Sequence record: SRR16203515_1384
Strand: one strand, 5' to 3'
DNA length: 54,605 bases
Each line of letters begins with the position of its first letter. Position 1 is the first letter of the stretch. The notes under the pieces were generated by a model. That model saw only the letters and a program-made list of their open reading frames with translations. It was not told where the DNA came from and searched no databases. The position numbers and the translations under genes were made by a program. Below, one piece after another: positions 22,145 to 24,429 of the stretch.

Positions 22145-23032
22145 ATGATTTTCAGATTTCTAATCCTGTCCAGCCTGATCTGGCTATCTGCCTGTTCAAA
22201 TTATGATCCTGAATTGGTGGCCCGTCTAAGTACGAAAGAAGCCAAACATTTGTTTGGCGCCGTAGAACGCGGATCAGAACAGCGACCCGCCCCCCACGGC
22301 AGTTACGCCAAAGGATGCGTTGCAGGGGCGGAACAACTGGCGGAAACTGGTCCAGCGTGGCAGGCGATGCGATTGTCGCGCAATCGCAACTGGGGACATC
22401 CAATCGCGATTGATTTCATCCATGACCTTTCTGCCAAGGCGGCACGGCAATCAGGATGGAACGGTTTGTACATTGGCGATATCTCACAACCGCGTGGTGG
22501 TCCGATGTTAACGGGTCATGCAAGCCATCAAATTGGGTTGGATATCGATATCTGGATGCGCCCGGCCAATAATATGTCACTAAGCACGAAACAACGCGAA
22601 GAGATATCATCCATTTCAATGCGCCGAGCGAATGGTGCCTATGTTAACGATAAGTGGACCAAACAACACCACAACATCATCAAAGCCGCCGCATCTGATC
22701 CACGCACAGCCCGCATCTTTGTTTTCCCAGGGGCCAAGGTTCAAATGTGCAAAGATGAAAAAGGCGATCGGGCATGGTTGAATAAGGTGCGTCCGTGGTG
22801 GGGACACCATTATCATTTTCATGTACGCCTATCCTGTCCAGCGGGTGCAACAAATTGTAAAAATCAGGCACCACCACCCCCAGGCGATGGTTGCAAGGAC
22901 GCAGAGCGTTGGGTCCGCGATATTTTGAACCCGCCGCCCCCAAATCCAAACGCACCAAAACGGAAACCAAAGCCGCCCCTGACATTGGCGCGACTTCCAC
23001 AGCAATGTGTTGGTGTTTTGCAGTCGAACTAA
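22145..23032 (+). CDS. mepA: Penicillin-insensitive murein endopeptidase
   Basis: SRNRNWGHP, IGDISQPRGG, GHASHQIGLDID, HHYHFHVRL; lipobox-like LSAC. Confidence 0.92.
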   Translation: MIFRFLILSSLIWLSACSNYDPELVARLSTKEAKHLFGAVERGSEQRPAPHGSYAKGCVAGAEQLAETGPAWQAMRLSRNRNWGHPIAIDFIHDLSAKAARQSGWNGLYIGDISQPRGGPMLTGHASHQIGLDIDIWMRPANNMSLSTKQREEISSISMRRANGAYVNDKWTKQHHNIIKAAASDPRTARIFVFPGAKVQMCKDEKGDRAWLNKVRPWWGHHYHFHVRLSCPAGATNCKNQAPPPPGDGCKDAERWVRDILNPPPPNPNAPKRKPKPPLTLARLPQQCVGVLQSN

Positions 23033-23089
23033 GCGGGCTTGTCATTTTATCCAAGTGACTTTAAACGCGTCTCGTTTCCGAATGGGAAC

Positions 23090-23120
23090 CGAGTCTCCGA
23101 ACACCTTCGATAAAAACGGA
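23090..23120 (+). promoter_or_regulatory. Candidate preQ1-I-like riboswitch aptamer
   Basis: CGAG-UCUCCGAACAC-CUUCG-AUAAAAA-CGGA: loop UCCG can pair with tail CGGA, which holds the SD 7 nt before the ATG of a queuosine-precursor transporter. P1 is imperfect. Confidence 0.5.
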
Positions 23121-23127
23121 TAATGCT

Positions 23128-23781
23128 ATGACAAAACTTCTTCCTGGCGTGATCGCCATGGCCATGATTGTGGTCGCCTCAAATATCCTTGTTCAATTTT
23201 TGCTATTGGATGGTCTTCTTACATGGGGGGCGTTTACCTATCCATTTGCCTTTTTGGTCACCGACCTGATGAACCGCGTTTACGGGCCAGCTGCAGCGCG
23301 TCGTGTTGTATTTGTCGGCTTTGTAACGGGTATCATTTGTTCCTTGATAGGTAGCCAAATCATGTTTGACAGCGAATACGGCCCCTATCCTGCCGTCGCG
23401 TTTCGCGTTGCAATTGGATCAGGGATTGCATTCCTGACCGCGCAACTGGTGGACGTTGCCATCTTTGACCGTTTGCGTAGTGGTGCCTGGTGGCGTGCTC
23501 CATTGGCATCAACTGTGATTGGATCTGCGCTGGACACCGCGATATTTTTTACAATCGCATTTTCAGCATCCGTTTCAGTTTTCAGCGAAGCGCAAAATGC
23601 AGAAATCAGCTGGGCATGGGATAGCGCGCCATTGTTGTTGTTTGGTGGCGATGCACCCCTATGGGTATCATTGGCGATTGCCGATTGGGGCGTGAAACTG
23701 TTGCTGGCATTGATTGCATTGGTGCCGTTCCGTATCTTGGTCGCACGTTTGCAAGCGAATACAACATCTGTTGCGAACTAA
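23128..23781 (+). CDS. Queuosine precursor transporter (YhhQ/VUT family)
   Basis: VVASNILVQ, LTWGAFTYPFAFLVTDL.NR.YG, AQLVDVAIFDRLR, S.LDTAIFF.IAF. Confidence 0.92.
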   Translation: MTKLLPGVIAMAMIVVASNILVQFLLLDGLLTWGAFTYPFAFLVTDLMNRVYGPAAARRVVFVGFVTGIICSLIGSQIMFDSEYGPYPAVAFRVAIGSGIAFLTAQLVDVAIFDRLRSGAWWRAPLASTVIGSALDTAIFFTIAFSASVSVFSEAQNAEISWAWDSAPLLLFGGDAPLWVSLAIADWGVKLLLALIALVPFRILVARLQANTTSVAN

Positions 23782-23851
23782 AACATTTTGACTTTTCTAG
23801 AAACTGTGGCACCATCACTAGTAGTGAAACATAGTGAAAGGAGGTGGTCCA

Positions 23852-23908
23852 GTGTCTAGAGAGGTATTGGAGAGAGGTGTCGGAACAGTTTGGGAGGTCC
23901 TTGACTAA
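23852..23908 (+). CDS. Putative 18-aa peptide MSREVLERGVGTVWEVLD
   Basis: GTG start 7 nt after AGGAGG, within an exceptionally long SD; TAA at 23906-08. Confidence 0.4.
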   Translation: MSREVLERGVGTVWEVLD

Positions 23909-23973
23909 GGCAACCCTTGGTCATTGACCAAACGAATTGGTGAAGCCTAACCGGCCCACCTCCGAAATTCTCG

Positions 23974-23998
23974 AGGGTCGTCCGCAACGGGCGACCCT
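23974..23998 (+). terminator. Hairpin closing the small RNA, 14 nt upstream of arfB
   Basis: AGGGTCGTCCG-CAA-CGGGCGACCCT (11 bp, one G-U); weak U-tract. Confidence 0.55.
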
Positions 23999-24012: not shown

Positions 24013-24429
24013 ATGATAACGATAAACGATAAAATCAGCATTCAAGATTGGGAAATCACCGAACAGTTCGTGCGCGCGTCAGGTCCGGGCGGACAGAACG
24101 TAAACAAGGTGTCGACAAAAGTGTCCCTGCGCTTTGAGGCGGACCGTTCCCCGAATTTGAGTGCCGCAGTGAAGGCCCGATTAAAGAAAATCGCTGGCAC
24201 CAAATGGACAACGGACGGCGCAATCATTCTCCAATGTGATGAAACACGCAGTCAAATCCGCAACCGCGAGATTGCGCAAGATCGACTAAAGGATTTGATC
24301 AAGAAAGCCCTGGTGGTTCCCAAACGGCGCCGCCCAACAAAACCAAGTCGTGGAGCAATAGAACGCCGGTTAAAGTCCAAGAAAATAAGGGCAGAGGTGA
24401 AATCACTGCGTTCTGGGAAAATTGAATGA
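24013..24429 (+). CDS. arfB: Alternative ribosome rescue peptidyl-tRNA hydrolase
   Basis: RASGPGGQNVNKV, RSQIRNRE, basic tail PKRRRPTKPS...RRLKSKK. Confidence 0.95.
   Translation: MITINDKISIQDWEITEQFVRASGPGGQNVNKVSTKVSLRFEADRSPNLSAAVKARLKKIAGTKWTTDGAIILQCDETRSQIRNREIAQDRLKDLIKKALVVPKRRRPTKPSRGAIERRLKSKKIRAEVKSLRSGKIE

Follow-up and report, generated by a model that had tools for sequence, protein, structure and literature searches.

A putative preQ1-I-like riboswitch with a consensus of its own in the yhhQ leaders of Rhodobacteraceae

The leader of yhhQ, the gene of a queuosine-precursor importer, contains a 31-nt RNA pseudoknot at positions 23090-23120 (+) of the window, the whole 54,605-nucleotide stretch of record SRR16203515_1384 analyzed here. 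This leader is probably a preQ1-sensing translational OFF switch, with a consensus of its own that likely makes it a new subtype. The initial annotation had proposed a preQ1-I-like H-type pseudoknot that hides the yhhQ Shine-Dalgarno (SD) sequence and turns translation off, and this proposal finds support in the covariation of P1, the bases of the putative ligand pocket, the spacing of the SD sequence and a salvage genotype in related bacteria.

The elements listed in that annotation (CGAG, loop, CUUCG, AUAAAAA, CGGA and ATG) are each found in the window where it had placed them (Table 1). The loop between the P1 strands, at 23094-23104 (+), reads UCUCCGAACAC, and the start codon of yhhQ is the ATG at 23128-23130. 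UCCG at 23096-23099 is indeed complementary to CGGA at 23117-23120, and the only SD-like GGA lies within P2, ending 7 nt before the ATG. Upstream, the neighbor of yhhQ is a murein endopeptidase gene that ends at 23032; downstream, a gene for an RF-1-domain (ArfB-like) protein starts at 24013.

Table 1. Features of the yhhQ leader and gene in the window; counts refer to 100 aligned copies of the element.
Feature	Coordinates	Strand	Remarks
Promoter-like -35 hexamer TTGTCA	23039..23044	+	putative; pattern conserved across leaders
Promoter-like -10 hexamer TTAAAC	23061..23066	+	putative; 16-nt spacer, ends 23 nt before P1
CUCG, competitor strand of the initial annotation	23071..23074	+	can lengthen P0 so that it takes in the P1 5′ strand
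P0 hairpin GUUUCC-GAAU-GGGAAC	23074..23089	+	-6.2 kcal/mol; ends directly at the first P1 base
P1 5′ strand CGAG	23090..23093	+	G23093 closes the helix at the putative pocket; column G in 98/100 rows, 2 rows misaligned
L1 UC	23094..23095	+	U23094 is the invariant U after P1; U 100/100
P2 5′ strand UCCG (anti-SD)	23096..23099	+	CCG/CGG complementary 100/100
L2 AACAC	23100..23104	+	C23104 is the candidate specificity cytosine, with A before it; C 99/100
P1 3′ strand CUUCG	23105..23109	+	exceeds the family consensus CUUG by one base; bulged U or C-C mismatch
L3 A-rich tail AUAAAAA	23110..23116	+	AAAA directly 5′ of CGG in 97/100
P2 3′ strand CGGA, SD core	23117..23120	+	last G of CGG 8 nt before the start codon in the window
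yhhQ (Vut_1 family, queuosine-precursor transporter), putatively regulated gene	23128..23781	+	Pfam PF02592, E 3e-29; family orthologues 56-97% identity

The window leader folds no better than its shuffles when taken as a single sequence (z = -0.16), so the single sequence proves nothing; it is by comparison, and not by folding, that chance is ruled out. A 28-base motif skeleton is found at one place in the window, where 0.02 occurrences were expected. A covariance model, R1, was built from 70 distinct copies (alignment A2), that of the window among them, and covers P1 only, because pseudoknots cannot be modeled. In the window, R1 has a sole site, at E 4e-6, and the next match is at E 0.1. Orthologues of yhhQ were found in 37 of 41 relatives. 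Within the first set of relatives, the motif is present in 20 of 23 loci that belong to the window's family and have an intact leader, and in 0 of 6 loci from other families. A loose regular expression then recovers it in 74 of 80 further Rhodobacteraceae/Paracoccaceae loci, and four more (L047, L090, L099 and L114) carry it with a changed P1, for a total of 78 of the 79 intact yhhQ leaders among these 80 loci. The locus labeled Geminicoccales (L117) has no motif, and one other lacks the 5′ end.

The element is widespread in the family. With one genome per genus and a threshold of E ≤ 0.01, R1 matches 125 of 151 Rhodobacteraceae genera; the match is single in 123 of these 125 genomes, and a second, weak one occurs in the other two. 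The yhhQ gene is present in 144 of the 151 genomes, and 31 of the 33 weakest matches fetched adjoin it directly upstream. Fifteen yhhQ leaders from genomes without an R1 match comprise one clear copy (L186), one possible copy (L183), two remnant-like sequences (L187 and L196) and 11 empty leaders; divergent copies with a changed P2 were sought in these 15 and none was found. A class-wide search with R1 took in 151 genomes from 151 alphaproteobacterial families and gave weak matches (E ≤ 0.1) in 26 of them. Only one of the 30 loci returned adjoins yhhQ, and it belongs to a Paracoccaceae MAG (G001) that is the nearest genome to the window; the weak matches in the remaining 25 genomes were rejected, as the loop and P2 bases are absent from them. 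The consensus pattern gave 0 matches in viral contigs. Since all the copies come from one bacterial family, their conservation is due in part to shared ancestry.

Two of the loci require comment. In G001, yhhQ is split across the ends of two contigs, G001:C8 and G001:C12 (L119 and L007/L039), with residues 1-22 and the leader on one and residues 37-217 on the second; the break is one of assembly, and the gene itself is not broken. A 7569-base contig labeled Luminiphilus, Halieaceae (L053) carries a Rhodobacteraceae-type yhhQ together with the motif, and the YhhQ tree places it within the Yoonia group, though it was binned as a gammaproteobacterium. It is likely a mis-binned contig.

The structure was assessed by counting pairs in 100 distinct copies aligned to R1 (alignment A3), an alignment that leans towards P1, with the variants plain in the raw sequences. 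The family consensus consists, in order, of the P0 hairpin, CAAG, U-C-UCCG-C-N-A-C, CUUG, NNAAAA, CGG(A/G), a gap of about 8-10 nt and the start codon. P1 is CAAG/CUUG in 71 of the 100 copies. Its bottom pair is C-G in 85, G-C in 6 and A-U in 2; the second is A-U in 90, G·U in 9 and G-C in 1; the third is A-U in 90, U-A in 7 and G-C in 1; and the top pair is G-C in 98, the other two rows being misaligned. Compensatory changes are seen at three of the four pairs. The covariation score of P1 is 0.124, against a shuffled mean of 0.055, and none of 500 shuffles scores as high; the maximum lies in register. The CAUG/CAUG form of P1 (7 rows) has at least three origins on well-supported branches of a YhhQ tree that is itself quick and poorly resolved. 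RNAalifold, run on the MAFFT alignment (A2), returns P2 only, without a covariation term, and does not recover P1. The three pairs of the P2 core never vary, and for that reason the core displays no covariation. The fourth P2 pair is U-A in 43 copies, C-G in 8, U·G in 6 and unpaired in 43; where the fourth position is C (9 copies), a G lies opposite in 8. The alignment of yhhQ leaders, which had been suggested as a check with the initial annotation, gives a P1 that covaries, an A-tract kept in 97 of 100 copies and P2 complementarity in all 100.

In class I preQ1 aptamers, the cytosine that immediately precedes the P1 3′ strand pairs with preQ1 on the latter's Watson-Crick face, further contacts come from a U in L1, an L3 adenine beside P2 and the G that closes P1, and the A-rich L3 occupies the groove of P1 (PMC11625349, in part). 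In the leaders, a candidate specificity cytosine stands immediately before the P1 3′ strand in 99 of 100 copies; the preceding base is A in 84 copies, C in 14 and never U. The loop is 10 nt long in 74 copies, and L3 has 6 nt in 72. At the level of sequence, the element displays every class I feature that could be tested here, with a consensus that is its own. Its place directly upstream of yhhQ likewise agrees with class I, whose members precede genes of queuosine synthesis or salvage. One copy (L175, G224:C16:229987-230018) has a G in place of the specificity cytosine, the sole such case, and QueF is present in its genome. The G could reflect decay of the switch, an altered specificity or an error in sequencing.

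An abutting hairpin, at least 4 bp long and with 0 nt between its end and P1, is present in 71 of 100 leaders and in 12 of 100 shuffles; it varies widely in sequence between genera. A P0 stem is present in some class I aptamers. Because P1 of the window is unstable when taken alone (+1.0 kcal/mol in the bulge form and +2.8 kcal/mol in the mismatch form), we infer that P0 stacks on it. The initial annotation had described instead an upstream hairpin competing for the 5′ strand of P1. Its CUCG is complementary to CGAG, and the minimum free energy fold of the single sequence does use these pairs, 23071-74 with 23090-93 (-8.9 kcal/mol for the extended hairpin, against -6.2 kcal/mol for P0 alone). 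The competition is not conserved, however: the outer pairs are kept in five loci of the window's genus (L001-L005) but not in a sixth (L006), and only 8 of 100 leaders sequester the 5′ strand of P1 upstream. The supposed competitor is mostly the conserved P0 that abuts P1.

Promoter-like hexamers lie a short distance upstream. The pattern TTGNNN-N15-18-NTANNN, ending 15-40 nt 5′ of P1, is found in 96 of 100 leaders and in only 4 of 100 control stretches taken from inside yhhQ; a scan of the leader for an E. coli-type consensus promoter found 0. The transcript is predicted from these hexamers to start near 23072-23075, in which case most of the competitor strand would be left untranscribed. Metatranscriptome contigs from four runs, which may include DNA, cover both yhhQ and its leader; three of these contigs, from three of the four runs, bridge the leader from the upstream gene. 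Since contigs cannot show starts and three of them bridge, they neither confirm nor exclude the predicted one.

With regard to the expression platform, the distance from the last G of CGG to the start codon is 8-10 nt in 80 of 100 copies, and 0 terminator-like sites were found in a scan between the aptamer and the start. Given this spacing and the lack of a terminator, control should be translational, by occlusion of the SD sequence in P2. In the window, T23124 introduces an AUG (AUG-CUA-UGA) that is out of frame and falls between the SD and the start of yhhQ. This position is A in L001-L005 and in the contigs of all four RNA runs, and the T is therefore private to this assembly or strain.

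We propose the following mechanism. Transcription probably begins just upstream of P0 (23074-23089), which abuts P1 (23090-93 with 23105-09), a short and A-U-rich helix on which it probably stacks. When abundant, preQ1 would lodge between P1 and P2, bound by C23104, which reads its Watson-Crick face, by U23094, by the last A of the A-tract and by G23093, with the A-tract placed in the groove of P1. UCCG (23096-99) would then pair with CGGA (23117-20) and mask the sole SD sequence, so that less importer would be made. When the ligand is absent, the weak P1 and the pseudoknot would open, and a ribosome could bind. We infer the ligand and its contacts in the pocket, the latter by analogy with solved class I structures.

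Does the queuosine genotype of these bacteria agree with a sensor of preQ1? The sample comprised five genomes, two from the window's genus and three from its family. Tgt, QueA and QueG are over their cut-offs in all five, QueF has no match in any of the five, and QueC is over its cut-off in none, the score in one genome being 103 bits against a cut-off of 150. Tgt, QueA and QueG without QueF and QueC constitute the preQ1-salvage pattern of PMC5372724 (in part), and with this set of enzymes the five relatives must import preQ1. Among the 151 Rhodobacteraceae genera, QueF is over the cut-off in 28 and was not found in 123. For the most part, the family seems to depend on the import of preQ1. The motif occurs in 105 of the 123 QueF-less genera (85%) and in 20 of the 28 genera with QueF (71%), a weak link by which the motif is not tied to the loss of QueF. 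Four of the seven genomes without yhhQ have QueF.

No Rfam family matches the leader, either at gathering score or at E ≤ 10, in the window, at the loci of 16 relatives or in a consensus copy. RF00522, the preQ1 model, when run over five genomes, has no match at the leaders, and its best matches elsewhere reach 13-17 bits against a cut-off of 39. This is the evasion that the initial annotation, which called for such a covariance search, had thought possible. The cause given there, the bulged P1, does not hold up, since RF00522 likewise misses the unbulged consensus CAAG/CUUG and the type III leader of E. coli. In fact, the yhhQ leader of E. coli K-12, a type III aptamer that has been crystallized (PMC10622847, in part), is unmatched at E ≤ 10, and RF00522 passes in only 1 of 14 control genomes. 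Because a validated type III leader is also missed, the failure of Rfam says little about membership.

How does the element compare with the described types of preQ1-I? Type II aptamers, such as those of Thermoanaerobacter tengcongensis and Bacillus subtilis (PMC11625349, in part), are H-type pseudoknots with P2 formed by the 3′ tail, as is the element studied here. Both have AC before the 3′ strand of P1 (in the leaders the A is present in 84 of 100 copies and the C in 99), a U after P1, a G closing P1 and an A-rich L3 in the P1 groove, and some type II members control translation by occluding the SD, as we propose for yhhQ. The leaders differ from type II in being unscored by RF00522, in having only four P1 pairs, rich in A-U, in the invariant CCG/CGG of P2, in an L3 of mostly 6 nt and in a P0 abutting P1; their host is an alphaproteobacterial family, and the gene is yhhQ.

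Type III, known from the E. coli yhhQ leader (PMC10622847, in part), precedes the same gene family in the same phylum and also has AC before the P1 3′ strand. Both pair a pyrimidine-rich loop strand with a purine SD in the tail, both act, or would act, as translational OFF switches, and both are invisible to RF00522. However, type III is marked by three G-C pairs conserved in P1, by a UU that follows P1 and by a tail of AAGG, and it is confined almost entirely to gamma-proteobacteria (PMC11625349 and PMC10622847, both in part). Here, two A-U pairs stand between C-G and G-C in P1, the tail is CGGA or CGGG, and P1 is followed by UC in 74 of 100 copies and by UU in 7. We therefore rejected membership in type III, given the tail, the scarcity of UU and a P1 of CAAG/CUUG in 71 copies. 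Type I shares with the leaders the class I pseudoknot architecture and the specificity C before the 3′ strand of P1, and it is defined by UC before that strand and by UU at the top of the P1 5′ strand (PMC11625349, in part). Membership in type I was rejected as well, the base before the specificity C being A in 84 copies, C in 14 and U in none. The type I aptamer of Carnobacterium antarcticum is said to bind two preQ1 molecules; since that base is never U here, two-ligand binding is not expected.

The literature found, including the available parts of PMC3766115 and PMC5737381, reports neither a preQ1 riboswitch for the Rhodobacterales or the Roseobacter group nor a fourth type, and a prior listing is possible in the supplements of McCown et al. 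2014. It is tempting to propose, though we do so tentatively and with somewhat less than even confidence, that the leaders constitute an undescribed fourth consensus type of class I, confined to Rhodobacteraceae, in which a minimal 4-bp A-U-rich P1 is propped by an abutting P0 and gates the sole preQ1 importer of this marine group. If this is true, the switch may have been selected to distinguish preQ1 from useless preQ0, given that QueF was not found in about four-fifths of the genera sampled.

That the consensus is unlike all three described types also agrees with another possibility, namely, that the same fold and switch are tuned to a different 7-deazapurine or purine (preQ0, queuine or a guanine-like molecule). 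YhhQ reportedly imports preQ0 as well as preQ1 (PMC5372724 and PMC10622847, both in part), and L175 has a G at the specificity position. On the other hand, the four positions of the pocket agree with those by which preQ1 is recognized in solved class I structures, preQ0 would be unusable where QueF is not found (5 of 5 relatives and 123 of 151 genera), and QueA together with QueG in all five relatives argues against the direct use of queuine. We consider another ligand improbable. The leader might instead be conserved without sensing anything, as a site for a protein or a small RNA or as a constitutive structure that tunes yhhQ translation. An SD together with such a site could account for the invariant P2 core, and the lack of a match to any Rfam riboswitch family fits as well. 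Yet coincidence would have to supply the class I architecture and the invariant pocket C, U, G and A-tract, as well as reproduce the 10-nt loop (74 of 100) and the 6-nt L3 (72 of 100), ahead of a gene family that is under type III preQ1-I control in gamma-proteobacteria (PMC10622847, in part). A non-sensing leader is, in our judgment, likewise improbable.

It could also be that the family element works while the copy in the window is weakened or defunct through its extra P1 base, the outer competitor pairs and the upstream AUG. This copy is among the lowest R1 scorers, at 28 bits against up to 52; its P1 requires a bulge or a mismatch; and the extended P0, which consumes the 5′ strand of P1, exceeds P0 alone in stability by 2.7 kcal/mol. 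The same CGAG/CUUCG is, however, identical in six further genomes of the window's genus (L001-L006) and recurs in Celeribacter, Pacificibacter, Donghicola and G211; the loci with the extra-base CUUCG variant include L044, L045, L059, L096 and L186. The pocket bases and P2 of the window are all intact, and a transcript beginning at the predicted start would omit most of the competitor strand. A failed copy in the window is accordingly very improbable, and a preQ1-sensing OFF switch is the reading that we prefer for the window as for the family.

If the preQ1 switch is real, it would extend the range of preQ1 riboswitches of class I to a family of alphaproteobacteria for which standard annotation shows none, and R1 with alignment A3 provides a concrete model for annotating the element. 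The leaders would also be a natural test of how short and A-U-rich a P1 may be when a neighboring helix stacks on it. The failure to find QueF in 123 of 151 genera would mark preQ1 as a regulated, external micronutrient for abundant bacteria of the ocean.

A separate observation concerns the region between yhhQ and the ArfB-like gene. Positions 23828-23997 (+) of the window match the Caulobacter sRNA CC2171 (RF01867) at 36.3 bits, below the gathering score of 75, and a match to RF01867 lies 3′ of yhhQ at 15 of the 16 relatives' loci as well, at 28-49 bits. This stretch ends in a G+C hairpin and contains GAAAGGAGGUGGUCC, which we take to be a near-perfect complement of the 3′ end of 16S rRNA. 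A metatranscriptome contig covering 23800-24038 spans it and is, over this stretch, the deepest of its run.
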